DNA of 64,000 nucleotides from Candidatus Omnitrophota bacterium (GCA_049642065.1 JBAROK010000007.1:2134-66133), one strand, 5' to 3'; shown: positions 1 to 64,000, numbered from the stretch's first letter. Notes: a model not told the origin generated them from the letters alone. A program made the numbers and translations.

Positions 1-1
1 G

Positions 2-3000
2 TCTGATTTCGATCAAAAGGTTAGGATAATTGGCGAGTGGCTGTTTCCCGCGATTAACGATGAGTTGAATAAGCTCGGCCTTGAAAATATTGAAGACGTT
101 GATGAGTTCGGTAATCAGGTAGTGAAGGAACGGCTGTTCAAGGAAAGAAAAGAGGCAGAGACCTCGGGGAGATTTAAAAGAGGCGAAGATGGGGAACTAG
201 CATTAGATGATACTTATGAGGAAGTAAAGGTTGTGAAGGAATTTTCCCAGATGCTTATGGATCTGGAAGCTGGACGGGTTACAGGCATTCAGCCGGGATA
301 CTTGATGTATATAGCCGAACTTGTCGAATATCTGGAAGGCAGCAGGCAGTTAAATTTTTATAGAAAAGGTACAATCGGTAATTTTAGGGTAGATGAATGC
401 ACGGTGCCTCTTAAGGGTGAGAACCATACTTTTTATGTGCTGAGGTTCCGAGATACCGGCAAGGTACTTTTTGGTGTAGCAGTTAAGGGTGATAAATGGA
501 TAAAGGTTAATGGTAGGGATGCAAACGTTGAGAATAAGCTCGGGAAGATCTATGAGCTCTTAAAGAGCGAGGGGTACACGCTGGTTGCTGAGTTAGCTGA
601 CTTCAAAATGGCTACAAGAGAAGAGCTCAAGAGCAGATTGGCGGAACTTACCGCACTGGCAAAAGACGAAGAAGTAGAGAAACGTTTTCCGATATACCAG
701 CTTGGCACAAAAGGAATCGAAGGTGGTTTTATACAGACACAGATCGCTTCACCGGGCAAAGTATTCGGAATAATCTCTATAGATACTCCTGGTAAGAAAG
801 ATTTACAGCAGGAATGGTCCTCAAAAATATATGTTCCGGGTAAAGGGTATATTGCTCCGGACGATACATCCAAGGCAAGCAAGGCGGCCGGTGCTATAGC
901 GGATTCAGGTGCTACTAATAATCATGCTAATATCACCTTGAGGCGTGAAGGTTTTGCCAGTGTGATAGGTATGGGGTCCCATCAGATGGTAGTGGAAGGG
1001 AACGTTATAAGGATAAAGTGTAACGTGCCGTCTACGGAAGATGTGATAAGGGGAAATGAAACTCGTACGATAAGACATTATAAGGAAGGGGAGGTCGTAC
1101 TAAGAGATGGCGACCTTGTCATGATAGATGCATCAGAAGATAGTTCTGACGGAGTCGTTGTTGCAGTGGGCAAAACGCAGTCAGAAGAGAAAGATTTTAG
1201 CGCCGAAGCGAAAGAACTTTTTGGTGTTCTCAGGGATATTGAACTGGGTGGTCCTCTCCAGGAGGGATCACAATACAGCCAGTTATATAAGCGAACTGTT
1301 GGGAGGATAACTGGTGCAGAGACGAAAATACGGGATATGCGTCTTCTGAACATGCGCAGGATCCTAAAAGACGCTTCAAGCGATAAAACTGTCAATCTCG
1401 CTAAGATGGTTGCCGAGATATTGATAGATACGAGCATGATAACCGATAGCGATAAAGCCAGAAGGACTCTGGAGACGCTCCTAAGAAGTCTTGACGATAA
1501 TGTGCGCGGTGAAGTGGAAGAGTTTATTAAGCTCCTTTTCGGTAAGAAGGTTTACCAGATAGAAAAAGAAATACATGCTGTGCTGGGGGAAGTAGGGATA
1601 AGTAATGTAAAGAAGAATCCGTCGTCCACGTTGCTGTACAGTAACACAGAACATATCCTGCTTGAGATCCGCGATCTTAACGATAAGATGGCTTTGGTAG
1701 CGGAGATGATACCGGGCGTGGATTACGATCCAGGAAAAGGTCTATTTGCTGAAGAAGCGGATATCATCAGGAAAAGGTTCAACGAGGCGCTTGAATATCT
1801 TCGCAGCAAGAAGCTGGATGAGCTGAGTGCGTATCATAGCGAGTACAGGATAGCGGAGATCGAACGTATCCTGAAAGCAGCTGATATTAATGAAGAAAAG
1901 TGGATAGAACTGAGCGATGAACTCGAGACGCTGAGGAGGACTTCAAGGGGATGGATGTTAGACAAGATCGAACGAGACCTAAGTAAGGTCAGAAGGGATA
2001 TTATAAAAGCGGAATGTCTCGGATGCGATCTTTCAAGCCCAGAGATGCTTACGCTTCAGATGGAAGTCAATCGTATGGTAGCTGTTGCTAACATCAAGAC
2101 GATGAGACAAAAAGGGCCGGGACGTTATGTTATAGACTTAAGTGAGCTGGGCAGCATATACAGGCAGGTTGCCGGGAACAAAGCTGCTGAGGTAGCTGAA
2201 GTGATGAAGATATCCGAATCTGCAGACAGCTATACTTACAGGACCGATTCCGGATTGACAGAGATAAGAAATATATTAAAAGACGGATTTGATCAAGTGC
2301 CTAGCGGGTTTGTCATAAGTTCTCTTGCTGTTTACAGCGTGATACAAGAAAACAGTGCTATTCGTCCAGATATAGAGGCGCTGATTTCCGGCAATGTGGC
2401 TCCTGAAGAAAAAATAGAGAAGTTAACGGAACTGTTGCTTGCCAAAGGAAAAATACCGGAATTTTTGAAAGAGATGATAGCGGAGAAATATAGTTCCATG
2501 GCAGGTGAAAGCAAGGAGCCTATAGTCATAACACGATCTACATCCCAGATGGAGGACCTTCTGGATGAAACAAGGCCCGGCGTTAGGAAAGCCGGTAAGT
2601 ATCTGTCCTTTGAATGCGTTAAGGGCATCGACCAGATAAAGAAGAACATATTTAAACATCTGGCACATTTCTGGGTAACAGAAGGAGATGTAAACGACCT
2701 TCATCCTATCCTAGTGCAGGAGATGCTTTTTGACCTGCATTCGTCTTTCGTGGCTAATTCAGTGGATTCTGCGGAAAAGAACTGGAACGTTGCGAACATA
2801 GATGCGGTGCTCGGATTGGGCAGGGGTGTCGTAGAAGGTGGGGAAGGTATAGCCATACATACCTTTAAGGCGGATAATGAGGGAAGGATAACGGGGCGTA
2901 TCGTGCCTCCCCATAACAGGATGTGGGCTCCCGCACCTTCCGGAATCGGTATCAAGCTGGTAGATGTGCCTGCGGAAATGAAAGCAGCTAGAGCTCTAAC

Positions 3001-6000
3001 CGAAGAACAGGTAGCGAAAATAGCAAAACTTGCACGTGCGTTCCAGAAATATTACAGGTTTCCTGTCAATATAGAGGGTGGTGTAACAAAAGACGGGAAG
3101 ATAGTTATATTCCAGGTGAGGCCTGATTCAACGCTGAAATCAAATTCATACAGCATGTCGGGGACCGGTATACACAGCCCGCCTGTAGAAAAAATTATAG
3201 CGCTCAGAAAACAGTATCTTGCCGCTGAAAATCCATCCGCGGAAGAACTGGGCAAAGTAGACCCCGCCGCTATATCGGAGCTGATAGATACCAACATAAA
3301 CGAATTATACCAAGCAAGAAAGTCCGAATCCGAAGTAAGAGACCTTGAATATAAACTGGTCGAGAGATTAGTTCAGTTTAAGGGTTACCATTATGACAGG
3401 GCCCGTGAAGTGGTAATGGACCTTAGGTTATACCACAGGCGCTCCGATGTGGTGGACAAACTGGACGAACTCTTCTTTGAGGAGCTAAAACAGATATTAA
3501 GAGAACGGCTGTTCGAAGAAGGGGAATTCAACAGGGACAGGGAAAAAATATCTTATTTTGTTGAGAATTTTCATAACTTGCAGGAGATCAGAGAGGGTAA
3601 AGATATACCGAATGGTAATCTTTTCAAGAGTAAACCGGAATACAGAGATGCGGTTATAACCTGGGAAGAGAGGATAGACCGGTACGCTTACAGGTATTTC
3701 ACCAACAAGGTAGCCTGGGATACAGCGAAAACTAACGCCGAAAAAGTCATATTTAACAATGTTCTGGTGAGGCATTTATCTGAAAAAGCGAAGGGTGAGA
3801 TGTATGCTTTTATAAGGTATCTCGTGCCCCGGCTTTACGAGAACATACCTCCTTTGAAACGGCTCAGACGCCCGACAATAGTTCTTATAGGCGGTACTAC
3901 TGCCAGCGGTAAATCCACTTCCGCCAGGTCTGTCGCTAAGAACCTGGGTATGCCGTATTATTTCTCTGCCGATCCTATAAGGGAAGTGCAAAGAAAGCTC
4001 ATACCGAAAGATACTAACCTGTCACCGGCTGACAAGCGGTCGAGTTTTCAGGAAGATCCGGCAGAAAAAGGGTTTATAGAACACGGGTCAAGCGTAATAA
4101 GGTCACTTAATGAATGTGCACGTTGGGCTGTCAATGAGAACAGGAGCATGGTAATAGAAGGTGTTCACCTTATCCCTGGACTTATAGATCCTAAACTTTT
4201 TGAAGAGGCGAACGTGGTGCAGATCATCGTGACAGTCGCCGACGAAAAAGGCCATGCCGCCAGGATAGAAAAAAGAGGTAAGGAAGAATCGGGAAGAGGT
4301 GGCGCTGGAAGATATCTTAAGGATTTCGATAAGATACGCAAAGCGAACGATCTTTTTGATGAACAGGCAAGGTCTCACGGCGTTGTAAGGGTGGATAATA
4401 GCAGCGATTTCACCCGTACTATCAGTGAAGTTCTTTTTTACGCGGCTGGTCCTTACAAAGATAAGGCGAAACAGGGACCGGATGAACGTTTACGGGCGAT
4501 GCTTGACAATAAAGTAACTAGGGAAAAAGTAAGGACTTCTTCCTCTTTAGGTAAGTATGTAAAGTCAGTGTACACGCTGGGAGAAAGCGACAAATTATAT
4601 ATCGATGCCAGTGAAATAGAGCCGGGAGTAATCGATAAGTCTGAAATAGAGGCTTTAAGGAATGCCATAGTCCAGACCACCTCAAGCGGTGCTCTGGTTA
4701 TAAGGGATTTTGACCGCCTTGTTGCCGAAGGCCGCTCTCTATTAGATTTTGCTGCCAGTATAGGTTTTGATGATGTGATCATCGGACAGGAAGCACTGTT
4801 CGCGCGTACCGCTAAAGAAGTAGAACCGATACTACAAGGGTTAACTGCGTATGCCGCTGAGCTTAACGTAAAAGTGCTTATAGAGAACCTGCCTACTACC
4901 GGTAATGCCGAGATATCCATTGGACTTAAGGACGCATACGGAAAAGGCGTACAGGATATTGATATGGAAGCGATAGTGCTTGCGGACGAAAATGGCGAAC
5001 CGGCCGGTATGATAGAAGACGGTGACGCCGTGTTCTTTGCCTGTAAACGCGGTGAGAGGGAGATACAGATCACGCTTCCCTTTGTCGCGGAAAAGATCGG
5101 CCAGAAATTCACGGACCTTGTAGTGAAAACATACGAGAAGATCAAGTTCGGGATAATGACACTTTATCACGACATGTTCGATCCGCTGCCAGTTGCGTTC
5201 AGGCCGATGAGACAAAAAGATCCGTTAGTAGACGTTTTAAGTGGCGCGGGCAAGAGATTCCTTCTTTCTGCCGAATCCGAGAAGATCAACCATATCACAT
5301 ATTTCTTCAAGGGGCAGTCAAGGGAGCCGATGGAAGGCGAAGAAATCTTCAGCGTAGATTCGCCTCCTAAAGATGAGCACCTTGACAGGCCGGAACTTTC
5401 TTTGCCCGCGCTTACTAAAGGTATTACTGAAAGGATGGAGACGGGCAATTTTGATTTCGTCGGTATAAACCTGGCTAACTGTGACGTTATCGGGCATTAT
5501 TACGATCCTACGGATGTAGAGAAGAACAAAGAAATAATCCAGATTAGACGCGAGGCGGCCGAAGCGGTTGATGAACACCTGGGGATACTGTTAGAGGCCG
5601 CAAAGAAACAGGGGTATTCTGTTATTGTTACCGCTGATCACGGCGTGGGAGAGGTAGCGGTAAAGAAAGGCAAGGGTGTCGGTAAACATACTACCAACCT
5701 GGTCCCGTTTATCGTGGTTGACCCGGACACTACAAAGGCGAGTGTTATTTCCATAGCTGAGACCGGAAGGCTTGGCGACGTGGCGCCGACGGTACTGGAT
5801 CTAATGAAGATGCAGAAACCGGAAGAAATGACGGGACAGAGCCTGCTCGTGGATTATCCTGAAAACGCTGATCCCAAAAAAGTTATGCTTATAGTGATGG
5901 ATGGTTGGGGTATAGGCGCAGAATCTGAAGATAACCCGATCCATATAGCTAATACACCTGTTCTGGACAGTCTTTACAAGGAATATTTGAACACTCGGAT

Positions 6001-9000
6001 AAAAGCGTCCCAGGAAGAGGTAGGGCTCCTTGCCGGTGACAGCGGTAATTCCGAAGCCGGTCATCTTAATCTCGGAGCGGGAAGAATAGTTTTAGGGGAC
6101 GATATAAGGATTGTCAATGCTGTTAAGGGTGAACCTATAGAAGGCGATACTACACTTGATGAGAACGCCGCGATACTTGAGACGATAGCTCATGCGAATG
6201 AACACGGTTCCAATCTTCACTTGATAGGACTCTTATCTGACGCAAGTTCGCATGGAAGGGTCGCCCATGTGCTGGAACTGCTCAAGCTTGCCAAGAGAAA
6301 AAGAGAAGAGTTCCGTGAGGAAGGTAAAGGTGACGGATTTAAAGAAGTCTTTATGCATATGATAACTGACGGCAGGAGCACCGAATCCGGTACTGCGCCG
6401 GTACTACTGCTTGATATGCAGAAACAGATGTCAAGGATAGGTCTTGGCAAGATCGTTGACTGTGTAGGCAGGAACCTTGCGCTTGACAGGGCATACAACT
6501 GGGGCAAAACGAAAAAAGCTTACCGGTTATTTGCCATGGGTGAAGGTAAACAGGTAGGTCCCGTGGGGATAGCCGAACAGCTTTTAAGAGATATACCGGA
6601 ACTTGGTGTCGCGTACAACTGGGATAACCATACCCTTAGCGGTGACCGTCCTGGTTTTGTGGGCAGTCTTGACGTAAGAGAACGGGTGGGCGCGATATTC
6701 GTCACTGATACGACCGTCAAAGACGAAGAGAAAAACATATTTGGAGCATTCGATGGCCATGGGGACATACCTTTCTTTGTCTATAGGATGCCGAAAGCAG
6801 CAAAAACACCCGAAAAGAAAAAGGAAGAAGAAACTATCTTAAGCGCTGAGACAGCTCAGGCCATTATTGATAAGTGCCAGGATAAACTTAAAGCTACGCG
6901 TAAGTCCCTTGAGGCTATACATGCGTATCAGTACCAGAGGGTAGTCAAGCTAGCGGAGGATCCAACCCTTCATTTTGATAAAGCACGAAAGAACCTTAAC
7001 GGCCTTTTTGCTGAGATCGAAAAAATATTAAACAGCCCTGACCTTGAGAGAAGGCAGAGGAAAGAAGCGATAAGGGCTCTTATGGAAGGGTTTATCGGGC
7101 TCTTCGGCTGGCAGACGATACAGTCAGTAAGGGAACATCTGGAAAGAGATGACCTGCCCGTAGACATACTTGACGGTGTCAACACTTATGAAGACCTCAA
7201 AAACGCTCTCAACGAGAACGCGAAAGTTAATATACCCGATGAGAAGATAGTCAATTACAGGTCAAAGATTACCCGAAGAAATATAGAGATGCGGGAGCTT
7301 GCTATTGAATATATCGAACTTGTTGAAGAGCAGAAGCGGCTTTATAACGAAGAACGTGAAGCGATACGGGAAGCTTACGTTGAAATTACCGGTGAAGAGC
7401 TAGTCGATGAGGAGAAGCTGCATGTCGCGGCAAGAAAAGCTTATCCGGAATATGTGCTGGACGTTCCGCATCTAAAGGATACGGATAAACCTACTTTTGT
7501 TAATGTTGCCGGAGTGATGGGGGTTAATAGCGCTGATGTGGCACATGCTATAGCCGAAAGGTCAGGTATCCCCTCTAGAATGCATTCTGGGATGCTGCGA
7601 GGAGTAATATCCGGGATATGGCCGGAAGATTTTATCAGCGCGACTGACAACTTTAATATCGGCAAAGATATAAAAGATGCGTATGTCAAAGCTTTTAATA
7701 AAGAAGCAAAGGCTGCATTAGAGGTTATCCTGACCGGTGAAGGGAATATCTCCAGAGCTGAAGCTGAAGCTATCCTGAAAAAGTTTGCCGAAAACTGGAA
7801 ACAGGCGATCCTCGAGCCGATTTACAGTGACTGGGTCAGGCTAACGAACCAGGGTACCAAACAAGCAATAAAGAGACTGCTAAAAGAAAAGTCCAGTCAG
7901 GTTTTTGTGGGAGTCTTCCCGGGTCTTCTTGATCCTGCGCATCATGAGGACGCGAATATCGTAAGCATTATAGTTAAAGTGGAAGATATCAATGAGCATT
8001 GGGACGGGTTCTTAGTTTCAGCAAAAGCCAGAGGAGTGGATAATCCATCAGACTGTATGGCGGAATTTTTCGCTAACAGAATACTCCAGGATCACCTGAC
8101 AGATTTGGGCAGGGACCTGATCCTGCCTGAAGTCCGTGAAACAGCTGTAGTTGACAGTTCTAATATGGAAAGTGCCGTCAGGAATGCTGTTAACAGGGTA
8201 ATCGATCCCATTGCAGATAGGTACGTTGAAGTGCCGAACGAAATAAAAGAAAAAGCAGAACTAGAAGAGAAAGTAGTTTTAGCCAAATATACCGAAGCAT
8301 GGGTAAAGTATTTAAAGATCCCTCAGATATCAATAGCATGGCTCTTAGGTTGGGCCGTTTTGAGATCGGTTTCTCCGGAAGCCGCGATAGCGTTCAGTAT
8401 AGCTTCGATATTTGGCGTTATATTCATGGTAATCGCCTCAAAAGACAGGTTGTTCCTGGAAAAGGCCGTGGCTAGCGCGGTTCTTGCTGTAGGGGTTTCT
8501 ACTTTCGTGCCAGGATGCTCAGAAGCGAAAAAAGACCCCAGGCCGGAACCAAGGCCGAATGCTGCGGCTGCTTCAGATGGAGACAAACCGGGCAATAAAG
8601 AATCGCAGGAGAAACCCTTCGAGATTAAGCCCGGCGAGAACATACCCGCCAGGGACAGAAATAAAGAAAAGAAGCCCAGTGAAGATACAATGAAAGCCGT
8701 AAGCGGTCTTATAGATAATGTGCTGGCACATACCGATAGGGACAGGACCGAAGATTACAGGAAGAACGCGAAGTTCCTGATGATCATGACGATGATGGTA
8801 GAAAGCGATCAGTTTGCCAGTTCCGTCCAGTACGGGGGAGGCCCCGCCAGGGGGCTGGCACAGTTCGAACCTGCGACGGCAAAATATGTGCGTGATCAGG
8901 TCAATAAACTAACGGAGAATAAAAGGTTCAAAAAAGCTCTCCAGGTCACTTTCGGCGAGAAATGGGAAGAGAAGATATTTGGCCTATCATCGGAAGAGAT

Positions 9001-26272: not shown

Positions 26273-26361
26273 TTCGCAGGTCCCGTGGGCTGCATGATTT
26301 GCGGCTCACGAAACCTGCGGGTTATGGTTAAAGTTCTACTTGGAGGTAGGACCAGGGATAG

Positions 26362-53700: not shown

Positions 53701-56700
53701 TCGCCAGGGGTCTTAACTGGAGAGAGACGCAGCTTAACCAGGCTTTTACTGCCACATCCGAAGATGCCGATGAAAGTAAAATAGAGGCGCTCAGGTTTAC
53801 CTGCGACAATACAGAAGAAGAGGTGGGTGGTATTTTCACGCAGCGTAATAATGTGGACATAGCAGGCAATCTTGAGAATGCAGTTAAAAGAATGCGTTCT
53901 ATAGCTGCTGCGCTCGGTGAAGACAATATCCAGGTGACAGAATTAAACGCCAGAATAAAGATTGCAGTTGGCAATAATGACAATGTAAGAGCAAGAATAA
54001 AAGAGGTGCTTGATCTTATTGCTCTTATTAGAAAAGCGCGTGGTGTTGCCGAAGAATCTAAGGTTGCCGAAGAATTGGCGAAGCTCAAAGCTGAAGAGGA
54101 AGCCGCGGCAGCAAAGCTCAAGGCTGAAGAGGAAGAAGCAGCAAGGCTCAAAGCTGAAGAGGAAGCAGCGGCAGCAAAGCTCAAGGCTGAAGAGGATAGT
54201 CTTGATAGTGAACTTATCCAGAAGGCAGCAGAACTCAGGAATCTCTTGGGTAGCATGCAGAGGTTAGAGCAGATAGATTATGACGCTATAATAGACGACT
54301 ATGAAAAGTCCGTAAGAAAAGAAGATGACACGCTTTCTCCGTATTTGCCGGAAAACAGGGATACTGAGATGGTGAAACAGAAGCGCCATCATGTGCTTGC
54401 TGAGCTGCTTGAAGCTCGTGCGCTTATCGCAAGAATAGAGAATGCTCTGGCTGAAATGTCAGCGGCTAATATAGCGGCAGATCCGGAGAAGATTAAGACG
54501 GTTCTGGCAACTGTTGAAGGTGTTATGAACGACGCCGAAGGAGAGAGTTTCTGGGGCCGCGTGAATGATAAGGCATATAATTACTCAGCTCCCGATGACG
54601 CGTCTAAGGGTTATAGCGAACAGTACGAAAAGGATTACGCAGAAGTAATAGGCGAGCGTGAAGCAAGGCTCAAGGCCGAAGAGGAAGAAGCGGCAAGGCG
54701 TAAAGCTGAAGAGGAAGAAGAAGCAAGACTTAGAGTTGAAGAGGAAGAAAAAGCATTCCTTGAGGATATGAACACTAAGATAGCCAATATTGAAGAGATC
54801 ATCAATCTTCTAAATAGGATTATTGCCGATGCAGAAGAAGAAAAGAGTGAAATAGAAGACATGATCTCCGGTATACCTGAAGAAGGTATAGAAGAGCCGC
54901 AACTAGCAGAAATGCGTACTCAGCTTGACGAGATAGAATTAAGGATAATGGGTCTTCAGAACAGGAATAACGATCTGGAAACTGATCTCGATACTATAGA
55001 AGGTCTGCTCAGGGCAATCGAAGGCACCCCACAGGCCGAACATGAGATGTTCGCTCTTACCGGTGCGAGACTTGGGGATGCAAGGGATCTTAATAAGACT
55101 GCTGATGAAAAAATAGATGAAGCTCTTGAAGCCCTCAAAAGGGCAAGATTGCGTCTTATGGACGAACATATTAAAACGGTAGAAAGGAATGCAGCCGCAC
55201 AGGAAGAAGAAAAGCGGAGAGCTGTTGAAGCTGGAGAACTATTCCTGGGTCCGGAAGGCGAAGTGTTACCGACAGAACCTGCGGAAGAGCTTGAACCGGA
55301 GATAATACTGCCGGAGGATCAAGGAGAAGCTGATGAGCCTGAAATGGTTGAACCAGAGATAGTCGCAGCAGGACCTGGTGGTCCGGATGAACCCGGCGAA
55401 CCCGGCGAAGGCGAAGCCGAAGAAGAACCTGAAGACGAAGATGCCAAGTTTGAAAGGGAAGTTAGGGATGCCGATGATATCATGAAGACGCTCAGGAACC
55501 TGGCCAAGAAGATCAATGGCTGGATGGGCGATCTTGAAGTGGATTTCCAGGACAAAGAGGGTGAAGAAGAGATAAAAGAAGACGAAGAGATCTTCCTGCC
55601 CAGGATCAGGTCCATGGAACCGTGGACTTTCTTTGATAAGAAAAAGGTTGGACAGTACAATTTGAGTAATCTTTACAGGTCCATCCTCATGGCGGGTGTA
55701 ATGGCACTTATGTGTCATATACTTGACAACTGGATGGTTGTAGCATTGCTGCCGTATATCGCAATATTAGTTGTAAAAGGGCTGAGTCTCGAGGAAAAAG
55801 CAGCAAAATGGGAAAAGGGACTGTTACTTGCTTCTTTCTTCCTGACATTACAGTTCTTTATACCGTGGTCTTCTGGAATAAGTCTTGGAACAGTGAGTTT
55901 TTGGCTGCTAGCAGGCACTTTGTTCGCGGATAGCGTGACTCCGCTGGTGAAATATCTCGTGAGATTGTCCAACTTGGATTTCTTTGACAACAAGAAAGGT
56001 CACTCTTTCGGTAACCGTCAGCCGTTCAACTACCAGTGGAACCAGCTAAGGGAACTGACGTCAATCAGAAATACACTGCAACAGATAAGAGAAGAGATAG
56101 AAGCCAAACCGAACGTCCGGGACTGGATATGGATGGATATGAGGCCTATACGTTCTAGGGGTTTAAGAGGTGCTGGTATAGACGGCGAAGATTATGAAGG
56201 CGGTATTGAGGGAAGGACCAATACTTTCGGGGAAGTTATAGACGACGCTATTACAGAACTCGGTGCGATAATATTCGTTGGAAAAGGCAAGGTAGGAATA
56301 ACTCCTGATGAAAATATAGAAACATGGAAAAAGGAATGGGATGAACGTAAGGCACACTACAGGGCACAGAGCCCCAGATCCAATGCGGTAGGCCGCGCTC
56401 TTCTATGGAGCTCACTGTTGTCCGCCAGCATAATCGCTGCAGCAGCATATTATGGTGGGCTTACCCTTATGTCGCTTACGGGAGTTATAACGATAGCCGC
56501 AGTTTTCATGGGCACTCTTATACTGGCCGGGAAGTTGGCCAGGCTTCTTATTAAGAAACAGCTGCTTATAGATATCCCGGCTGACATGAAAAACACGACC
56601 AGAAGGGGTAACAGGCAGATATTCAGTCTCGTAGGAGAAAGAGAAGGACAGCCTTTTACCGGACATCCTTTAAAGGTCTGGGACATATGGAGACATTTGA

Positions 56701-59700
56701 CCCAGAGCGCAGCTGCCAAGAGCATAGAAGTACTTACTGAAGATTTTTCAGGTGCGGAAGATGTTAATAAAGAGACCATGAAAGGTCTGCGCGGGCAGAA
56801 GGATACTGCCGTATCGCGTGGTCCACTGGACAGCATGGCGCTTTCTGAAGCGGAAGGCCTTATAGAAAAGGTAAAACTTGTCGTCAAGACGGCACTTTTC
56901 CTGTCAGCGGTACTGGGCCTGTCATATTTGGCAGGGGTAACCATTTTCGGCGGTTCAGCATGGATATACCAGCTGACGGCCTATGGAAATACCGCGGGCT
57001 GGGATGAGATCTTCAGGCACGGGTTCGCGATAATAAAGGTAGTAAAGAATATAGCTCTCTCGGAAAGCGGAAGCTGGATGACTGTTTTACTTAAGGGCGG
57101 CCCGTTTCTGGGTGTAGGACTTCTTGCGATGATATCAAGCATGAGCCGCAAAGTGCGAGGAAGAGCCAAAGAATTTCTTATGAACGTGGGCGGTGTTCTT
57201 CTCGCTGTCGGTGCCGGTGTAGCGTTTTTAGAGATAGCATCTATAACTCAGCCAATACTGTTAGTAACAGCTTTGGGGCAGTTGATTCTCGGTAGCGTCG
57301 TTCTCGGTAGCTTATGGATATTCGGCCTTAAGTTCTTCGGGTACGATATCGGCCAGTTTGCTAAACTTTATCCGGATGAAGAAGTCGTTACATGGAAAGA
57401 TATACTCAAGAGGTTCGGATGGGCGGTTATATCGGCTAGTTTCATAGTGGGTGTACCGCGGCTTACAGGTCAATCTATAGGTGAAGCTATATTTATCGCT
57501 ACGGGTAACGTGGCTCTGGGGATCAGCCTTGGTACCGCTATTAATGTTATCCTGGCTACTTTTATGGTGTATTCCATGCTCAGGGGTTTCAGCATGTTGA
57601 TAGCCAAGAACAGGTTTAAAGCTATAGCTGTGGACGATAAGCTTTATGCAGGCGACGATGAGCCTGCGCTGGATTCTTCTACCGACAGTTTCATTAAAAC
57701 CTTCTTAGGCGGGAACCGCTATACGGAACGGGAACTAAGGGTAATAGTCAAGGCTAATAAGCTAGGTAAGGAACATCTGGATGAAGGGGACGACCCCGAC
57801 GACAGCAGACGCGATGAAAAAATGATATACGAGAGTATTATGGGTCATGGAGGCCAGCCTTCAGGTGTTGATTATTTCAGCGCTGCGATGAACGCCAGAT
57901 TTGACGAACTTACAGCCGCGCAGCTGTTAAAGCTCATGTCAAGGGCCGCTTTCAAGAAACTTGAAAGAGAAGACAGGATCCCCGAAGCGATGACCAAGAA
58001 CGAACTCGTAGGGTTCCTGGAAAGAGACGGGAATTACCGCGAACAACTGGTTGTTAGGGCACATCTCATGTATGGGGAACTGGACATAGAACAGATACTG
58101 CAGAGGCTGAGCGGAGCCGGGTTCAACGGTGTCAAGACAGAATTAAGGAAGATTAGAGAAGAAGAATTAAGAATATGCAATAAGGCTATCGCAGAAGGCG
58201 AAGATCAGCTGAGCCTGAATGAAAGCGAGATCTACGAGAATATCAAGAACAGGTACCCTGCTCTTATGCCCGAAGAGTTGGTCGAGAAACTGGAGAAATG
58301 GATCAAGATCAGCGAGCATATCAAGCTTTGGGATGTTCAGGATGTTGTAAGAGGGAAGAACCCCGAGATCGATGAGTGGCTGGAAGGCACGAACGCTGAT
58401 GAGCTCAGGCAAGTGATAGATAAGGATCACCTGGAGAAACGTCTTGTGCTCATGTATGATTTTATACCGAAGACCCAGTCGTGGCTCGTTATTATCGGTG
58501 CCAGCTGGGAAGATGAAATAAAACCCTTGGTAAACTCACTGCTTACTCTCAGGTATCCGCTGAAAAAGATGAAGTTCATCTTCGCCGGTGAGACTTGGGA
58601 TGACGGTACGGAAAGGTCCATAAGGGAAGCGCGCCTTAACGCAATGAGAAGGATGCGCGGGCTTATGGGCGAAGTGGTCAAGGGAAGCCTGCCTGAACAG
58701 TTCGAGTTCAGGGGCGCTCCTGTAAGGGAAGAAAACGCGGTGAAGTTAAGAGGTTACAAATGGATGCCGAGGTTTTTCCGTGTCATTATTACGCGTATGT
58801 TCGGTCCATATGTTGAACCGTCGCAGCCGTATACTAAGCCGGGCGCTAACACGTTCGCTCTAAAAGATTCCGATGGCGCTTACGGTATCATATACGATAC
58901 CGAGGATAAACCTGAAGACACTCAGATACTCAAGTTCATACTTGGACTTACAGATGGTATCTCAGAAACAAGGCGCCTGCAGGATGATTTCAAGACGAAA
59001 TATATGAGGACTGAACCCGTGCGTAGCCGCAAGCCCGAGGTAGATGCTCCCCTAAAGGTCAAGGTCCAACATTACAAAAGTTCTATTAATGATGCGGTAA
59101 AAGAATACAACAAGAAGCTTTCCAAGGAAAACAGGATCGTGTCTAATCGGTATAACCTGAAGAGAGGCAGGGTTTTAAAGCGTCACATGAACTGGTTCGC
59201 TACAGAAACTCTTCCCACGTTGTTAGATATCATGCATACCGGTCGCTTACATCTTCTTTCCACAGGTCTTCTTTGGAAAGAAGTGCTGAGCCAATCAAAG
59301 CAGGCTGACAGGATCAAACTCAGAAACCTTTATATAAGCCTTGCGAATATACCTGGGTATGGCCGTCTGGCGACTGACTATTTACTGAGCAACAAACAGA
59401 AGGAAGACGAGTACGCTTTTGTAGAAGGTCTTATATTCGGTGAATTCGAGAGGATCAACGCGCCGAAGAACGGCCAGGGTCGTCTTTCTCAGTCTCGTTC
59501 GGCTGGACTGGCGACGAGCTGGGTTAACGGTGCGTATTTTGAAGGTGAGTACGGCGCGTGGTATAACATGGGCTGGGACGGTTTTCATGCATTGCCGGAT
59601 ACTTTCAAGCCGCTCGGTGGTACTACTGGATGGTTCTGTACCGAGCCCGTAGAAGACATATACGTACAGGAGATTGAAGAAACAAAACCTGAAAAACTTC

Positions 59701-62700
59701 AGGAAATCGGGATCGGCGCAGATGAAAAAATTATAATAGCCGAGCACTATGCCGATAAGAAAAAGCTGCATACCATAGGTGCCTGGGACGAGATGCAGGT
59801 TGCTGAGGACTACATGCTTGGTTTTGTCGGTTGGCTTAACGGGTTAAACATAGCCAGTTTTTACACGCTTACGCCGGAAGACGCTACTTCTACCAGCGGG
59901 CTTACCATTAATACGAGGGCGCTGCAGGTTTCCAGGTGGAATAAAGGTTATATCATAGGTCTTGTAACCGTTGCTTGTAAGTGGAGCGTGCTGAAAGAGG
60001 TTTGGAAGAAGAAGGGCCCATTGGGGATGATATCTTTCCTCGTGGCCACGCTTTCAAGTGCTATACATCCGCTTCTATTCAGGTTCGCGAGAGCTTTTAC
60101 TCTGGTATGGTGTTTGTATTTTGTTCCGGTTAAATGGATAGTATCCATACTGTTGCAGATACCGGTAATCTCAGGGCTGTTCGTAACGTTCGAGAACGCT
60201 ACGGGTCTTTTTGCCGGGCTTACAACCATGCAGAACATGGTCGCCGAGATATTCCCGCAGCTGCTCAATTTTATGGGGCTCGGTTGGGGATGGATCCTGG
60301 GTCCGATGATAGTTATCGTGCCGATACTCCTGTTCAAGTACTTTACCGTAAAGGCCATGTTCAAAGGTATAAACAAGAAACTCGGTCTCAGGAGACAGGA
60401 AGAAGAAATATCCGAAGAGTATATCGATAAGAGCAGGAAAACCAGTGTTGGCGACGTCTTGAAAATGGTGAACTCCGATTCACGTGAAACATACTTTGCT
60501 GAAACTATCCGTGAGACCGCAAGAGATGATGGCGAAAGAAAAGCTGTAGCCAAGAAAGCCGGCGATTTTGTCCAGGGAAGCATGCATGAAGCCCAGATGA
60601 CACTGTTTCAGCTGCAGGACGGCAAATCGGTCATGATGGAACTGTGGGAAAGGGTAGAAATTATACTTAAGGATATGCCGTTCTATATGACAGCGGAAGA
60701 TATGCAGGAGCAGATCGGTAAGAGGCTTTCGGGCCGCGACAAAGCTAATTTTGACCTGTTATGGCCGCTTCTTACGAGACATGATGACGGTACGTACACC
60801 CTTCCGATAGGGGCGGATCTCAGTGACCTGTACCTTAAGGAACTGGCTGATGTATGGGTAAAAGCGCGTCTGGGTGAGGAACTTACTAAAGACGAAAAGA
60901 GCAAGCTCAGGCTGGTCGAACTTTTAACCGACAGCGACATGGATGTATTGTACGCACAGAAATCATATTTTGATCTATTGGGTATGGTCTCGGCGGATAT
61001 GAGATCTGAACTGGAAGCAGCAGCCCGCTCCGGACGCAGGGTTACTACAGAGCAGGCGATGACTATAATATCTCAGGATCCGGTGGAAGAGTTGAGAGTC
61101 AGGATAGCTCTGAGGATAGAACAGGGTGACTATTTTACAGTTAATTTGTTCGAGATGTACCTTAATGATCCCTCTAAGGCAGGACATATCGAGAACAAGG
61201 CCAGAGAGGTTTATTATGGCGACAAGAACAGTAAGATCGTAAAGGACGTACGCGAATATCTTGGCCTTTGCTACGACTGGCAGGATGCGCGCGAGATCAA
61301 AGATACTTCAGTTGAAGAGTTCAAGCTCATGAAGAGAGCCATAGAGACGGGTGACCTTACAGTTGAAGGCCTCATGAGAAAACCGGTCCAGACATGGGTG
61401 ACAAGGATAATAGGGGTTTTCTTCCCGGAGATGAAGACGGTCACATTAAGCCTTATAGCTCCTAGGCTCTGGCTGTTCTATGCAGGGGCTCTTGCATCGA
61501 GTATGCTGGGAATAGTGTTCATGCCGACAATGTCCATATGGTTAATGATACCGGCGTTAATAGGTGTGACCCTGGCCGGAGGCATGCTTGTAACCTTGGC
61601 TGTAATGGCAGTTGTAAATATATATATTAAATCGGCGACAGGCGACGAACGGGCCATCAGGGCTCTTTCGGTCAGGCTTGCCATGCCGAACCTTTTTATA
61701 GATTGTTACCAGACGCTTTATCTTTACGGTAACAAGGTCGCCTGGCAGGAAATAATAAGCGGAAGCCGTGTTGGATACTGGTGGCTTACCGGAAGGTCCG
61801 TAGGCGTGCTTGAGACAGTGTTCAGAAAGAACGCTGCGGCCAAGTTCCATGAAAAAGCAGAGAAGATCAGGGAATCCGAATCCCAGATGGTGGACAGTCT
61901 CTTGGAAGCAAGGCTTAAGTTCCAGACCAAATGGAACTGGGGGTTTATGCTACTGATATTCGTACTCGTTCCGCTGGGATTGAGATCGGATCTCAGGGAC
62001 GTTGTTTTTTCAAATATAGACCATGCGATAACGAACAGTTCGCACCTTATATCCAGTAACCCGGTTGTTCAGGCCATGGTAGTTGCCGGACTTTGTATTG
62101 CCGCAGCACTGCTTGTGGTCGGTCTTATTCACAAGGCTTTCAAGAAATTGGGCGACTGGAGGCAGCCGGAATTTGCAGTTACGCTGGGTATCTCTTCGGA
62201 TGTTTATGACGAGCTTATGGATCTTGACGTTAATATGAAGAAACTTGGGCAGAGAACCGGAATAACCAATTTCGTTCGTATACAGGAAGGCGATAGAGAA
62301 GCCATGATAGAAGAGCTTAAGAGTAAGACTCGCGGCGCAAAATCCGTGCTGGCTTTATTGGACAGCAGGGAGCTTCCTGTAAATCCGCACACGGACGACA
62401 TAGATTTCCAGGAACTTGAAAAGATCATAGGTGCTTTTGCTAAAGAAGCGCAGACCGATATAATCGAACTTATGCATCCGGAACTGACGAAAATGAACGC
62501 AGAAACAGTGAGGAAGATAGGTAATGTTGACCGCCTGAGGTATGTAGTGGGCGTTATGGCTCGCATCATACCCGAAGGTGAGTGTTTTGACCTCAATGAG
62601 AAGAGCATTTACGATATAAGGATAGACAACATATACAATATGCACAGGGTTGATTACACTGAGCAGGCTCGCAGGTACCTTGAAGGTATCAGGAGACAGC

Positions 62701-63335
62701 CGTATGCCCAGGATGATCGCCGGTACCTCGTCACTGCGGTGGACAAGGCGATGGACCTGAAACTCTTGGCTAACTCTATCAGAGAAAGAAGAGAGGCTAT
62801 GGAGGTCATCGGGCGTGACTCAGACCCGGTCAAGGACATAGTGATCGTGAAGAACCAGCATATCGCTTATGACCTGGACAGAGTGCTTAAAGAAACGGAA
62901 CTCGGGGAGTACCTGAGTAAAGACGACATTATCATAGTCGGCGAGAACGAGACGCTGAACGCAGAGGACCTGCTGGGTATGGTAAATGAAAAGACCGGAT
63001 TGAGCCTGCAGCGCAGCCAGATAGCGCTCGGGGCAAAAGAAGGCGTAATAAACGTGGACATGAACAAGGCAGAAGTGCGCGAACTCTTCAGTGAAGGCAA
63101 GAAGGATAGTATGCTCCTTGTACAGATGAAGGGTGGTCTTGCCAGCCAGCTCTACAGGATGATGATAGAGATCGCGGCTAACGGTGACAAAAGAGTAGAA
63201 TGGGCAGGCGATACACTAGAGAAGGTGAAAGGCCTCAAAGTGTACACCTATCTGCCCAAGATGGAGAAGATAGATCTCGAAGCTGAGATAGAGAACTACG
63301 AGAGATACATCAGCGAGATACTAGTGAGAGCGTAA
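26706..63335 (+). CDS. Giant secreted/membrane protein of 12,208 aa, containing a signal peptide, a SecA-like ATPase, polytopic TM blocks, a coiled-coil stalk, YD repeats and a GT2 processive glycosyltransferase domain.
   Basis: 36.6 kb ORF. ATG at 26706 is preceded by GAGG (26694-26697) at ~8 nt spacing and by two promoter-like elements. N-terminal hydrophobic segment [14 protein letters not shown]..VWA. Multiple family motifs recognised (see the domain features). Stop TAA at 63333-63335. Confidence 0.9.
   Translation: [12209 protein letters not shown]
26770..26880 (+). other. N-terminal signal peptide / signal anchor of gene 2.
   Basis: Positively charged KSRHVKFIK followed by [18 protein letters not shown], with a possible AxA-like cleavage at VWA-TG. 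Confidence 0.5.
29030..29525 (+). repeat. Copy 1 of a ~160-aa domain of unknown function duplicated within gene 2.
   Basis: [16 protein letters not shown]...[23 protein letters not shown]...[31 protein letters not shown] aligns with copy 2 at 52465-53000. Confidence 0.55.
33760..36060 (+). other. SecA-like translocase ATPase motor (DEAD-like NBD1, PPXD-flank, NBD2) embedded in gene 2.
   Basis: [25 protein letters not shown] matches SecA EMkTGEGKTLvatLpa[26 protein letters not shown] matches vDEvDSiLIDEAr[37 protein letters not shown] matches iIvDEfTGRtm.GRRwsdGLHQAvEAKEgv. [16 protein letters not shown] matches atIATNMAGRGTDIvL. [31 protein letters not shown] matches GGLhvIgTERHESRRIDnQLRGRsGRQGDpG. 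Confidence 0.65.
34620..35290 (+). repeat. Tandem internal duplication of a ~70-aa SecA segment (the DEGTG...[10 protein letters not shown] region).
   Basis: Copy at ~34620-34910: [54 protein letters not shown]. Copy at ~35010-35290: [55 protein letters not shown]. Confidence 0.55.
36780..38100 (+). other. Polytopic membrane domain (~10-12 predicted TM helices) in gene 2.
   Basis: Consecutive hydrophobic segments: [138 protein letters not shown] and others. Confidence 0.55.
38600..46900 (+). other. Long alpha-helical coiled-coil / fibrous stalk region of gene 2 (roughly 2,800 aa) with internal degenerate repeats.
   Basis: Sustained E/K/R/A/L/Q-rich heptad-like sequence. Internal paralogous stretches include [27 protein letters not shown] (~39010) and [27 protein letters not shown] (~39460). 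Confidence 0.45.
46841..46890 (+). repeat. 15-nt in-frame tandem repeat (x3) encoding [15 protein letters not shown].
   Basis: gctgaggagaaaaaa / gctgaagaaaagaaa / gctgaggagaagaaa. Confidence 0.6.
49230..50760 (+). other. YD/Rhs-type repeat region.
   Basis: Repeated Y/F-x-DG-[ST] and YD..GRL-like units: [66 protein letters not shown] (classic YDxxGRLI). Confidence 0.45.
52465..53000 (+). repeat. Copy 2 of the same ~160-aa domain, immediately after a TM helix.
   Basis: [16 protein letters not shown]...[23 protein letters not shown]...[31 protein letters not shown], preceded by the TM segment [12 protein letters not shown]. Confidence 0.55.
53446..53583 (+). repeat. 69-nt in-frame direct tandem repeat (2 units).
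   Basis: ctgaagaggaaccgggaatacttgcttc... occurs at 53446 and again at 53515. Encodes [23 protein letters not shown] / [23 protein letters not shown]. Confidence 0.75.
54081..54200 (+). repeat. ~30-33-nt in-frame tandem repeat (4 units) encoding KLKAEEE(E)AA(A)A.
   Basis: aagctcaaagctgaagaggaagccgcggcagca and three variants. A related [30 protein letters not shown] block lies at 54655-54760. Confidence 0.7.
55680..57620 (+). other. Second large polytopic membrane block of gene 2 (at least 12 hydrophobic helices).
   Basis: [197 protein letters not shown]. Confidence 0.55.
58440..59960 (+). other. GT2-family processive glycosyltransferase (cellulose/chitin/PNAG-synthase-like) catalytic domain.
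   Basis: [12 protein letters not shown] (GT-A start), ETWDDGT (DDG; 58599-58610), [12 protein letters not shown] (DxD; 58895-58906), [21 protein letters not shown] (ED region; 59804-), [11 protein letters not shown] (QxxRW; 59922-59939). TM helices lie on both sides. Confidence 0.6.
60010..60390 (+). other. TM helix cluster immediately after the GT2 domain.
   Basis: [69 protein letters not shown]. Confidence 0.5.
61400..62150 (+). other. C-terminal TM helix cluster of gene 2.
   Basis: [106 protein letters not shown]. Confidence 0.5.
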
Positions 63336-63422
63336 TGAACAGGCTGCATGCCGCAGGCTCCAGGCCGGGAGCCGGAAGCCTGCGGATGGGGCCTGAAACA
63401 TAAAGGACCTTAACCCAACCTG

Positions 63423-63474
63423 AAAACGTCCTTACTCCCAGGCCTTGCCAAGCTGCCTGGGGTAGGGGCGTTTT
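63423..63474 (+). terminator. Candidate intrinsic terminator of gene 2.
   Basis: Nested hairpin: AAAACG (63423-28)/CGTTTT (63469-74) around CCCAGGC (63437-43)/GCCTGGG (63455-61), ending in a TTTT run. A separate GC-rich 9-bp hairpin lies at 63351-63385 (CCGCAGGCT/AGCCTGCGG) directly after the stop, without a U-tract. Confidence 0.4.
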
Positions 63475-63598
63475 CGTATGTATAGGGAAGACATTTCCCT
63501 GCTTTTCATGTAAGTTATTTATTTTAAATAAGATACAGATAAAGGGCAGACAACGCATAAACCCTTTGTTAAATTAGAAAAAGTAAGAAAATATATGA

Positions 63599-63627
63599 TT
63601 GACCAAGAGCTTATTTATATATATAAT
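63599..63627 (+). promoter_or_regulatory. Sigma70-type promoter of the third gene.
   Basis: TTGACC (63599-604), 17-nt AT-rich spacer, TATAAT (63622-27). Located ~65 nt upstream of the ATG, with an alternating (TA)n region around it. Confidence 0.6.
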
Positions 63628-63680
63628 ATATATAGCCTAAAAGTAAGACGATAAAAAAGGCAGATATACAGTTTTTACAG

Positions 63681-63688
63681 GGGGGAGA
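63681..63688 (+). promoter_or_regulatory. Shine-Dalgarno for the third gene.
   Basis: GGGGGGAG, 4-10 nt upstream of ATG 63692. Confidence 0.5.
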
Positions 63689-63691
63689 TAG

Positions 63692-64000
63692 ATGCTGAAA
63701 CGCATCAAGTTATTTAAAATAGTATCAGTATTACTACTGATCGTGTTCGTCCATGAACAGCTTGGATGGACACAGGATGGTGCGCCTGTATGGGCGGATC
63801 TCGAAAACGTCAGCAACATCCCGTCTGGAGAACTTCCTTCTGAAATAAAGATACCTTACGATATTGGTGAAGTGTGTGATGCTACCACCAACGGTACAAG
63901 CGAAGTTATCATAAATATCCAGGATGCTCATGCATCTCTATCTTCCCAGTATTCCATAGTAAATATACTCGATAACCTTGTATCTAATTATGATGTCAAA
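63692..64000 (+). CDS. Start of a third large gene (3'-truncated by the window edge). Its N-terminus is paralogous to that of the 26706 gene.
   Basis: ATG at 63692 preceded by GGGGGGAG (63681-63688) and by a TTGACC-N17-TATAAT promoter. Signal-peptide-like MLKRIKLFKIVSVLLLIVFV. Conserved block IINIQDAHASLSSQYSIVNILDNLVSNY versus gene 2's VIIQIQDAHASLSAQYSIVKLLDSLVANY. Frame open to the window end. Confidence 0.75.
   Translation, partial: MLKRIKLFKIVSVLLLIVFVHEQLGWTQDGAPVWADLENVSNIPSGELPSEIKIPYDIGEVCDATTNGTSEVIINIQDAHASLSSQYSIVNILDNLVSNYDVK

Follow-up and report, generated by a model that had tools for sequence, protein, structure and literature searches.

The stretch of DNA considered here, 64,000 nucleotides (nt) of the + strand from Candidatus Omnitrophota bacterium (GCA_049642065.1 JBAROK010000007.1:2134-66133; hereafter the window), is occupied by three co-directional genes, and the extreme length of gene 1 and gene 2 raises the question of whether such reading frames are genuine and, if they are, what kind of protein they encode and how genes of this size are put together. 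Our analysis leaves us nearly certain that the three genes follow one another as separate transcription units and belong to one Omnitrophota-specific family, whose products are giant mosaic proteins, non-repetitive and embedded in the membrane. Comparison with relatives shows a common layout in this family, in which a signal-anchor helix and a head module of ~550-600 aa are followed by a variable middle and then by an alpha/beta tail module of ~380 aa. The middles range from fewer than 1,000 to more than 11,000 residues and are made up of unrelated enzymes, uncharacterised helical sequence and clusters of membrane helices.

The initial annotation of this DNA had described giant co-directional reading frames that could not have arisen by chance, the first of them continuing past the left edge, and a third gene starting at 63692 with an N-terminus paralogous to that of gene 2, all of which is borne out. 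No stop interrupts + strand frame 2 between base 2 and the TAA at 26270-26272 (8,756 codons), and gene 1 stays open on the left; gene 2 is complete, and on our count encodes 12,209 aa rather than the 12,208 aa given earlier. Given the base composition of the window, stops are expected among random codons with p = 0.060, and the probability of a stop-free run comes to ~1e-236 over gene 1 and ~1e-329 over gene 2, which excludes chance as the origin of either run. The two remaining + frames jointly contain thousands of stops, and because all three stop codons are plentiful there, no stop-codon reassignment is required. GC content by codon position follows the order GC1 > GC3 > GC2 in each 3-kb block of both genes, a uniform coding signature. 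Collapsed repeats, which had been mentioned as a possible source of error, are of no concern, since Tandem Repeats Finder returned just five trivial arrays across the 64 kb; self-comparison of the genes revealed one 180-aa segment of gene 2 as the sole internal domain repeat. The first ~100 residues of gene 3 match residues 34-137 of gene 2 with 38% identity over 107 aa (E = 1.4e-22).

Part of the locus has been assembled independently. A 1,105-aa entry at NCBI ("hypothetical protein, partial", Candidatus Omnitrophota bacterium) matches the start of gene 2 at 100% identity, and is encoded on JBAROM010000060.1 (23,566 bp), a contig of the metagenome-assembled genome (MAG) GCA_049642105.1 that breaks within gene 2 and on which the gene 1 open reading frame (ORF) is also called. 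Window positions 16706-30020, the junction between genes 1 and 2 included, are 99.947% identical to this contig over 13,315 bases, and all seven of the differences are synonymous third-position changes. The contig represents another assembly, from a nearly identical strain, and the frame is under purifying selection. A scaffold from another species (ENA ERZ23498717 scaffold_60; L007 below) is collinear with gene 2 residues 6092-12209 at 45-50% amino acid identity, and ~320 nt past its gene 2 orthologue begins a further gene that shares 69% identity with gene 3 over its first 103 residues.

The window could in principle be a chimeric or mis-assembled contig, or a non-coding stretch lacking stops, for example through a reassigned stop codon. 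The DNA does derive from a metagenome, independent support is missing for gene 2 residues 1106-6091 (window about 30020-44980) and for these alone, and a metagenome scan with gene 2 residues 6000-6400 for an independent contig found none. In L007, moreover, the gene 2 orthologue is divided by a frame change and called as proteins of 9,408 and 3,002 aa, whose sum of 12,410 aa is near the length of gene 2; candidate explanations are a sequencing error, a pseudogene and a genuine split. Weighing more heavily on the other side are the abundance of all three stop codons in the other frames together with the TAA that terminates both genes, the evenness of the coding signature along genes 1 and 2, the restriction of differences from the independent assembly to synonymous substitutions, the negligible tandem repeats, the recognisable in-frame domains throughout gene 1 and at both ends of gene 2, the identical N-to-C layout of homologues, and the collinearity of the 3' half of gene 2 in a second species. 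An artefact is thus already largely refuted, and we assign it only a very slight probability.

The frame change in L007 falls at 9840-10028, within a charged, low-complexity zone rich in E, A and K that contains repeats of roughly 120 aa. The matching zone (window about 54081-55500) contains the only notable tandem repeats of the 64 kb, at 54081-54196 and 54660-54755.

The evidence for a family rests on the two ends of the proteins. The last ~390 residues of genes 1 and 2 are 27% identical (E = 5e-26), and a profile of this tail, run against 1.84 billion representative proteins, gave 131 matches, 66 of them at E <= 1e-30. In essentially all 131 proteins the match ends at the last residue or within a few tens of residues of it, and the extreme terminus is strongly conserved (...LYIYLPxARPIDLExEIRNYYERYxREVLIRA). 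Tail-bearing proteins range from fragments up to 7,866 aa, and about 30 of the 131, with lengths of 1,196-7,834 aa, also start with the head module. A fold search with the tail returned merely generic Rossmann- and HAD-like matches, and we therefore give it no function.

For the head (gene 2 residues about 27-640), a collection of 5.8 billion proteins contains at least 50 homologues, nearly all of them from Omnitrophota; most are cut by contig ends, and some are complete and small (437-1,270 aa). The nearest genome-collection matches to the gene 2 N-terminus, at 57-58% identity, are a MAG of Candidatus Tantalella remota (Omnitrophota), which is the nearest named relative, and a MAG labelled Planctomycetia; named homologues are nearly all Omnitrophota. 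An Omnitrophota origin of the genes, and their membership of the giant-protein class described from that phylum, are near certain. In the alignment of heads Q112, D113, H115, Q121, E143, G144 and R481 are invariant and T505, G506, G507 and H509 nearly so. The structure model of the head is confident, and its structural neighbours are ChaN, the type III effector HopBA1, two entries for BcR135 (a Bacillus "succinoglycan biosynthesis" protein), a TraB family protein and the erythromycin esterase EreC, as well as RRSP. Proteins of the TIKI/TraB/ChaN/Ere superfamily carry the pattern GxxH...E...R...GxxH at strand ends, and in the head H115, E143, R481 and G506-G507-x-H509 each lie at strand ends. 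The head is predicted, from its model, to have the fold of the TIKI/TraB/erythromycin-esterase/ChaN superfamily. It differs from the TIKI/TraB/PrgY/GumN/ChaN/erythromycin-esterase proteins in having no detectable sequence similarity to members in Pfam or PDB, in its helical insert of ~300 aa, in the signal-anchor helix that precedes it and in the thousands of cargo residues fused to it. Because a 999-aa head protein is encoded in a 1.43-Mb Omnitrophota genome (CP070780.1; L005), head-module proteins also occur outside giant arrays. At that locus (L005 982-12996) the gene lies between recA and an operon for an RND efflux system comprising, upstream of the head protein, an outer-membrane factor, an adaptor and two pump genes.

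Between the conserved ends the cargo changes from protein to protein. Sixteen complete relatives carry PEP-utilizers, PTS-HPr, glutamate dehydrogenase, WbqC, ARMT1, radical SAM (S-adenosylmethionine), HD, B12-binding, M50 peptidase, GDPD, HAD, PEMT and PIG-L domains, along with one cell-wall hydrolase, one RHS repeat, one beta-helix and one glycosyltransferase of family 2 (GT2). A compact member, P0060 of Candidatus Tantalella remota (3,128 aa, L002 266-9652), carries between its head and tail a glutamate dehydrogenase that is complete (E = 3e-63), a cell-wall hydrolase domain of the SleB type and a region resembling M50 peptidases. Lengths at orthologous positions also vary greatly, the gene 2 orthologue in locus L001 having just 2,048 aa.

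Members of the family tend to lie one behind another. Junctions in which a tail-encoding end is followed by a head-encoding start occur twice in the window and again in L001, L002 and L007, and L001 and L002 have the family member P0060 upstream of the gene 2 orthologue. On a second contig of the same MAG (L004) a tail ends at 1218 and the next head-bearing gene starts at 1413. In L006 a giant of 32,700 aa ends 348 nt ahead of a head-bearing gene; it was considered as a tail-family member and rejected, as it is not of that family.

That each gene has its own terminator, promoter and Shine-Dalgarno sequence, as first proposed, agrees at the level of sequence prediction with the signals found in both intergenic regions (Table 1). 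The post-stop hairpins are very stable and include A-tract/U-tract stems of the type seen in intrinsic terminators, and the T-run past the gene 1 stop is also kept in L001 and L002. So is the first promoter-like site upstream of gene 2 (26432-26460), in which TTGACA, a 17-nt spacer, TG and TATACT form a near-consensus sigma-70-like element; near-consensus sites of this type occur in both regions. Shine-Dalgarno-like runs end 4-8 nt ahead of the start codons of genes 2 and 3. The 19-nt motif AGACGATAAAAAAGSCAGA is present in exactly two copies in the 64 kb, one in each leader of genes 2 and 3, against a chance expectation of 0.01, but the corresponding spacer of another contig from the same MAG does not have it; it may be a shared regulatory or 5'-untranslated element. 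An Rfam scan of the whole window at gathering thresholds found no RNA family.

How genes of this family might become so long is suggested by seams within them. Residues 3205-3413 of gene 1 are homologous to residues 2548-2747 of P0060, a segment that includes the motif RFDVxxDF and stops where the P0060 tail begins (2742). The gene 1 segment has no tail behind it; helices and a body of ~5,300 aa come next, and this body aligns with a second relative, P0062, from its residue 715 through to its tail. P0062 has its head at residues 2-618 and its first post-head helix at about 706, thus just before the aligned body. The simplest reading of these alignments is that gene 1 would be two neighbouring family genes fused, with loss of tail, spacer and head at the joint. 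Gene 2 has an internal seam of its own, where a hydrophobic helix precedes a second copy of the segment that follows the head (residues 8592-8771 against 777-947, 42% identity, E = 2e-38). The same post-head segment is found at residues 780-939 of P0105 (2,594 aa), a protein resembling a compact gene 2 in its succession of head, post-head segment, piece of a SecA-like first nucleotide-binding domain (NBD1), helix and tail. The event in gene 2 is old, because the orthologue in L007 has the internal copy too. Taken together, the alignments suggest that the giants may grow through end-to-end fusion of adjacent family genes, dropping tail, spacer and head at each joint.

The content of the two middles was searched with Pfam in 5,000-aa tiles and then in 1,000-aa tiles at E <= 0.5, with PDB sequences for all tiles, and with NCBIfam and PADLOC. 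Gene 2 is non-repetitive and mostly without Pfam matches, and has ~30 hydrophobic helices in four clusters; apart from a TPR-like stretch near residue 1063, its one credible match to Pfam or PDB sequences is the SecA-like motor that the initial annotation had recognised, here placed at residues 2376-3190. The region is composed of NBD1, a tandem pair of preprotein-crosslinking domains, NBD2 and the first part of the scaffold helix; its Walker A (SSGKT), Walker B (DEAD at 2519) and arginine-finger motifs are intact, and it keeps TNLGGRGIDI and RGRVGRNGRPG. No wing, C-terminal linker or Pfam SecA_SW domain was detected in it, and its NCBIfam SecA scores all fall far below the cut-offs, the best being 194 bits against 862. 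The motor thus shares with the SecA translocase NBD1 with GKT and DEAD, the preprotein-crosslinking domain, the arginine finger of NBD2 and the beginning of the scaffold helix, but is only 23-27% identical to it, lies inside a 12,209-aa protein, has its crosslinking domain doubled, lacks the wing and C-terminal linker and is covalently joined to a bundle of ~12 helices. A homologue search with the SecA-like region and its helix bundle returned only canonical SecA, at that same 23-27% identity, and no giants, with the word-index limit of the search as the probable reason.

From residue 3200 to 12209 of gene 2 neither Pfam nor PDB sequences gave a credible domain. The lytic transglycosylase, GT2 synthase and YD repeats that had been expected in this DNA were not recovered. 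For the transglycosylase there was no Pfam match in 1,000-aa tiles and none among PDB sequences, and for GT2 likewise no Pfam or PDB match; a lone QxxRW stands at gene 2 residue 11074, with a chance expectation of ~0.3, and GT2 is absent also from P0083 and P0084, close relatives of that region. RHS/YD repeats gave no Pfam or PDB match, and a regular expression for the YD core motif found nothing. The envelope-active domains expected earlier do occur in the family, not in the window.

Gene 1, by comparison, does hold a string of enzyme domains, as the earlier term polyenzyme implied, recognised by Pfam, NCBIfam, PDB and PADLOC. Its first part has a phosphoglycerate and phosphoenolpyruvate (PEP) theme, residues 284-2747 (window 851-8242) containing a PEP-utilizers swivel, a PEP-synthase-type ATP-grasp, two kinase-like domains and a mutase. 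The swivel precedes the ATP-grasp, an order opposite to that of PEP synthase. The first kinase-like domain matches 2-phosphoglycerate kinase (NF003259, E = 6e-35, 121 bits against a cut-off of 343; NF008994, E = 6e-13), an enzyme typical of methanogens, which are the prey of the one studied Omnitrophota predator. The mutase is a cofactor-independent phosphoglycerate mutase (iPGM) whose C-terminal half comes first, gene 1 residues 1642-1950 corresponding to iPGM 220-510 and residues 1959-2183 to iPGM 4-211; the catalytic serine and metal-ligand motifs are kept (GNSEAGH, ANCDVIGH, TADHG), and the NCBIfam score is 214 bits against a cut-off of 331. We know of no permuted iPGM that has been described before.

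Towards the end of gene 1 lies a cassette made up of an ARMT1-like phosphatase (residues 6857-7064), a helix hairpin (7140-7193), DUF4922 (7361-7449), a radical SAM domain (7630-7973) and an HD domain (8037-8111), of which the ARMT1-DUF4922-radical SAM-HD succession is common to the relatives P0057, P0078 and P0080. The radical SAM domain is nearest to prokaryotic viperins (viperin_w_prok E = 3e-21; PADLOC pVip E = 1.6e-23); at 75.9 bits it lies below the NCBIfam equivalog cut-off of 180, and viperin still outranks all other radical SAM families, by six orders of magnitude. In this region (window 22889-24334), which the HD domain adjoins, CxxxCxxC stands ~135 residues upstream of GGEPLL, a spacing that implies an insertion. 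Some ten hydrophobic helices are scattered through the visible gene 1.

Table 1. Features of the window, all positions counted from its first base; residue numbers are those of the gene concerned.
Feature	Position	Strand	Details and basis
Gene 1, 3' part of a giant gene	2..26272	+	8,756 codons visible, left end open; mosaic multi-enzyme with membrane helices
PEP-utilizers swivel (residues 284-340) and ATP-grasp of PEP synthase/pyruvate phosphate dikinase type (765-1047)	851..3142	+	PF00391 E=3e-4, PF01326 E=8e-25; PDB PEP synthase; NCBIfam
P-loop kinase, 2-phosphoglycerate-kinase-like (residues 1280-1481)	3839..4444	+	NCBIfam NF003259, NF008994; Pfam AAA_18
Circularly permuted iPGM (residues 1639-2194)	4916..6583	+	PDB 1ejj E=1e-80; Pfam; NCBIfam
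Second, weaker 2-phosphoglycerate-kinase-like copy (residues 2610-2747)	7829-8242	+	
Hydrophobic helices of gene 1	8366..9604	+	hairpin 2789-2840, single helix 3176-3201; Kyte-Doolittle 19-residue windows
Gene 1 seam (residues 3205-3413)	9614..10240	+	blastp/jackhmmer against P0060, P0062
Weak LigT/2H-phosphoesterase-like region (residues 4654-4804)	13961..14413	+	PF02834 E=7e-5, at cut-off
Conserved cassette ARMT1-like/hairpin/DUF4922/radical SAM/HD	20570..24334	+	Pfam, NCBIfam, PADLOC, PDB
Gene 1 tail (residues 8366-8756)	25097..26269	+	ends ...EVLIKA; match to gene 2 end, alignment, profile, AlphaFold2 (AF2) model pLDDT 83.6
Post-stop hairpins of gene 1	26273..26390	+	26273-26321; 26355-26390 with U-rich 3' side, terminator-like; RNA fold z = -7.5
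Promoter-like sites upstream of gene 2	26432..26648	+	26432-26460, 26620-26648
Gene 2 leader	26658..26697	+	motif AGACGATAAAAAAGCCAGA 26658-26676; Shine-Dalgarno-like GAGGA 26693-26697, 8 nt ahead of ATG
Gene 2, complete giant gene	26706..63335	+	ATG 26706, TAA 63333-63335; 12,209 aa, 36.6 kb
Gene 2 N-terminal module	26817..28625	+	signal-anchor-like helix 38-58, alpha/beta core with ~300-aa helical insert (90-640)
Post-N segment (residues 777-947)	29034..29546	+	common to P0105 (2,594 aa), repeated within gene 2
SecA-like ATPase (residues 2376-3190)	33831..36275	+	PF07517, PF01043, PF21090; PDB SecA E=4e-26; NCBIfam; motifs
Helix bundle right after the SecA-like motor (residues 3356-3791)	36771..38078	+	~12 hydrophobic helices; hydropathy
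Gene 2 internal seam	52341..53018	+	hydrophobic helix 8546-8567, then second post-N copy 8592-8771
C-proximal membrane region of gene 2	55683..62153	+	clusters 9660-10300, 11105-11220, 11579-11816; hydropathy; shared with P0083, P0065, P0116, P0084
Gene 2 tail (residues 11823-12209)	62172..63332	+	ends ...EILVRA
Post-stop hairpins of gene 2	63340..63501	+	63340-63395, 63421-63476 (A-tract/U-tract stem), 63483-63501 then CTTTTC; z = -6.6, -6.0
Gene 3 upstream signals	63599..63687	+	promoter-like site 63599-63627 (TTGACC-17-TATAAT), motif AGACGATAAAAAAGGCAGA 63646-63664, Shine-Dalgarno-like G-run 63680-63687
Gene 3, first 103 codons	63692..64000	+	ATG 63692, leaves window at right edge

These genes are no new kind of object; they join a recognised class of Omnitrophota giants that is catalogued by the thousand. 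Giant ORFs are well documented in the phylum (Kizina 2022; Seymour 2023; West-Roberts 2023; Nielsen & Lui 2026), and the link that had been drawn to giant mosaic genes of a candidate phylum is sound. Most genomes of several Omnitrophota classes have ORFs of more than 20 kb, and a Velamenicoccus archaeovorus protein of 39,678 aa with 42 helices yielded peptides three-fold up in attached cells (Seymour 2023). Curated giants reach 85,804 aa and have numerous membrane helices (West-Roberts 2023), and 916 proteins of at least 10,000 aa are reported from 229 genomes, or 5,761 with public MAGs, up to a maximum of 147,155 aa (Nielsen & Lui 2026). The description of the present proteins as among the largest in prokaryotes was thus overstated; since the class reaches 85,000-147,000 aa, genes 1 and 2 are mid-sized, ordinary members of it. 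Gene 2 (36.6 kb, 12,209 aa) passes the thresholds of > 20 kb (Seymour 2023) and of >= 10,000 aa (Nielsen & Lui 2026) and lies below that of > 90 kb used for the set of 46 genes in West-Roberts 2023; of gene 1, at least 26.3 kb is visible in the window. Unusually rich domain content was likewise too strong a claim, catalogued giants often carrying 20-50 distinct Pfam families each (West-Roberts 2023; Nielsen & Lui 2026).

Several traits tie the window to this class. According to Nielsen & Lui 2026, membrane helices or a signal peptide occur in 94% of giants, and a "multi-enzyme metabolic" class and a SecA_DEAD architecture cluster are defined; West-Roberts 2023 describes divergent SecA DEAD and preprotein-binding domains without a wing domain. 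Numerous hydrophobic segments are present here (~30 in gene 2, ~10 in gene 1) with signal-like starts in genes 2 and 3, and gene 2 has the divergent, wing-less SecA DEAD and preprotein-binding domains; no SecA-like domain was seen in the visible part of gene 1. Set beside the V. archaeovorus protein, the "Archaeovorin" type and the Nielsen & Lui classes, the window proteins share the phylum, very long non-repetitive ORFs, many membrane helices, a wing-less SecA-like pair of domains adjoining membrane helices, strings of unrelated and otherwise cytoplasmic enzymes including radical SAM and HD, and a large Pfam-dark fraction. They differ in size, gene 2 having 12,209 aa against 30,000-147,000 aa, and in that no glycosyl hydrolase, glycosyltransferase, methyltransferase, NUDIX, C39/S8 peptidase, dockerin or TSP3 domain was detected in genes 1 and 2. 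Domains of the "Archaeovorin" subtype were found neither by Pfam (1,000-aa tiles) nor by PDB sequence search in either gene, and for the "Dockerin-type" subtype there were no dockerin or TSP3 Pfam matches and no internal repeats. Our term searches of West-Roberts 2023 and Nielsen & Lui 2026, and the sections compared, yielded no mention of fusion, terminal modules, a TraB/esterase-like domain or tandem paralogues. What appears to be new is a sub-family with shared head and tail modules, together with the model-based structural assignment of the head and the seams that suggest growth by fusion in tandem arrays.

Consecutive co-directional giant genes are also known as Giant1-5 of Apilactobacillus kunkeei, which encode proteins of 3,000-8,000 aa and take up a sizeable part of a small genome (PMC12863079). 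Those are extracellular Firmicute surface proteins, unrelated in sequence, without the enzyme strings, the SecA-like motor or the polytopic membrane regions.

What do such proteins do? Giant genes occupy a large share of very small Omnitrophota genomes, and roles in host dependence or predation have only been guessed. Prey adhesion and wall digestion are the roles proposed in West-Roberts 2023, and the initial annotation had mentioned cell-envelope attack; nothing in genes 1 and 2 specifically indicates such attack. The gene 2 N-terminal helix is preceded by positive charges, the family consensus there being ...WA|Q, and the start of gene 3 (MLKRIKLFKIVSVLLLIVFV) has the look of a classic signal peptide, because of which the head would be expected on the outer face of the cytoplasmic membrane. 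Many relatives have a glycine-rich hydrophobic helix within ~50 residues after the head. In gene 2, residues 825-843 were considered as a second helix returning the chain to the cytoplasm and rejected, as the paralogous copy at ~8640 is polar.

From these features we would propose that the proteins reside in the cytoplasmic membrane with the head outward, that the post-head helix of many relatives returns the chain to the cytoplasm, and that cargo dependent on ATP, SAM or Fe-S clusters functions at the cytoplasmic face. The SecA-like motor and the adjoining helix bundle might then thread extracytoplasmic stretches of their own giant, or of its array neighbours, across the membrane; movement of giant chains by SecA-like domains has also been proposed in West-Roberts 2023. 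The product would be an envelope or host-interface structure, matching the host-dependent lifestyle proposed for the phylum. On the mechanism as a whole our judgement is about evenly balanced; a membrane-embedded envelope or host-interface protein with its enzymes on the cytoplasmic face and its head outside is slightly favoured, and the overall explanation, taking identity, layout, mechanism and evolution by fusion together, we favour with modest confidence.

Several points weigh against this explanation. Membrane helices were taken from Kyte-Doolittle 19-residue windows, a crude scale that limits the weight of any topology. No hydrophobic segment lies between residues 59 and 3355 of gene 2 (window 26879-36770), and so a signal anchor at the N-terminus would put the SecA-like ATPase on the same, outer side as the head, contrary to the proposed mechanism. 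The paradox of ATPase domains outside the membrane is noted also in West-Roberts 2023 and Nielsen & Lui 2026. The top Foldseek match of the head, EreC, is weak (E = 0.02, prob 0.85); the head has no Pfam match at E <= 0.5, and its profile against PDB sequences gave low-complexity noise only. The fusion inference has two or three comparator proteins as its basis, and internal duplication or cassette insertion could give similar seams.

MARTX toxins, which are very large, carry a variable array of unrelated enzyme modules between conserved N- and C-terminal regions. The window proteins resemble them in their conserved ends and variable enzyme middle, and the MARTX effector RRSP is a structural neighbour of the head, which brings into view an exported or host-delivered effector platform, with head and tail serving export or anchoring and the middle being cargo that acts on or in a host or prey. 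Inside a host, ATP, SAM and metabolites would be at hand for the kinases, mutase, radical SAM and SecA-like domains, and the absence of a membrane helix from gene 2 residues 59-3355 also speaks for such a platform. The Sec-signal-like N-terminus with its positive charges, classic in gene 3, the swappable cargo between conserved ends, the secreted effectors HopBA1 and RRSP among the neighbours of the head, and the cell-wall hydrolase, RHS repeat and beta-helix of relatives are all compatible with such a platform, as are the surface or predatory roles put forward in the literature and the V. archaeovorus giant that is commoner in attached cells. The ~30 helices of gene 2 and the several of gene 1, however, suit an integral membrane protein better than a released toxin, and in many relatives a second helix stands right behind the head. 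Unlike MARTX toxins, the window proteins have tens of membrane helices and ATP-dependent, housekeeping-type enzymes, and no RTX or glycine-rich repeats, no autoprocessing cysteine-protease domain and no cell-wall or carbohydrate-active domain were detected in genes 1 and 2. Nor are type I or other secretion-system genes visible, the window being filled by giants alone. We consider delivery of this sort rather unlikely, and clearly behind the membrane-embedded envelope protein.

Alternatively, each gene could be translated once and the product cleaved into separate enzymes and membrane proteins by the TIKI-like head or another protease. The middle is indeed built of independent, otherwise free-standing enzyme types, and some members of the TIKI superfamily, Tiki and RRSP among them, are proteases. 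For other giants, West-Roberts 2023 raises the idea that N-terminal peptidase domains cleave their own chain. The proteins, however, show neither a repeated linker or cleavage motif nor internal repeats, the predicted outward orientation of the head separates it from the bulk of the chain, and membership of a superfamily that also has esterases and non-enzymes does not imply protease activity. A polyprotein seems to us improbable, more so than the effector platform, and the membrane-embedded, host-interface protein remains the reading that we prefer.

A bolder combination of these ideas, which we offer as speculation with little expectation that it is right, is that gene arrays may act as a nursery for fusion between neighbours, with head and tail forming an insertion or delivery platform for interchangeable cargo that would act on pools of metabolites and nucleotides in a host cell, either attached or lysed. 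The cargo meant includes the 2-phosphoglycerate-kinase-like domains, the permuted mutase, the PEP-utilising domains and the viperin-like radical SAM enzyme, which would work there and not in the producer. If true, host-acting cargo would resolve the paradox of ATP-dependent domains in Omnitrophota giants being predicted outside the membrane.

For the biology of the phylum, the locus is a clean example of its giants, providing a full gene for 12,209 aa with both ends and both neighbours. The head-and-tail sub-family offers a basis for building phylogenies, recognising full-length members among fragmented assemblies and localising the proteins, and the paradox of ATP-dependent domains following a signal sequence becomes testable. 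Fusion between tandem neighbours provides a concrete possible route by which giant genes may grow.

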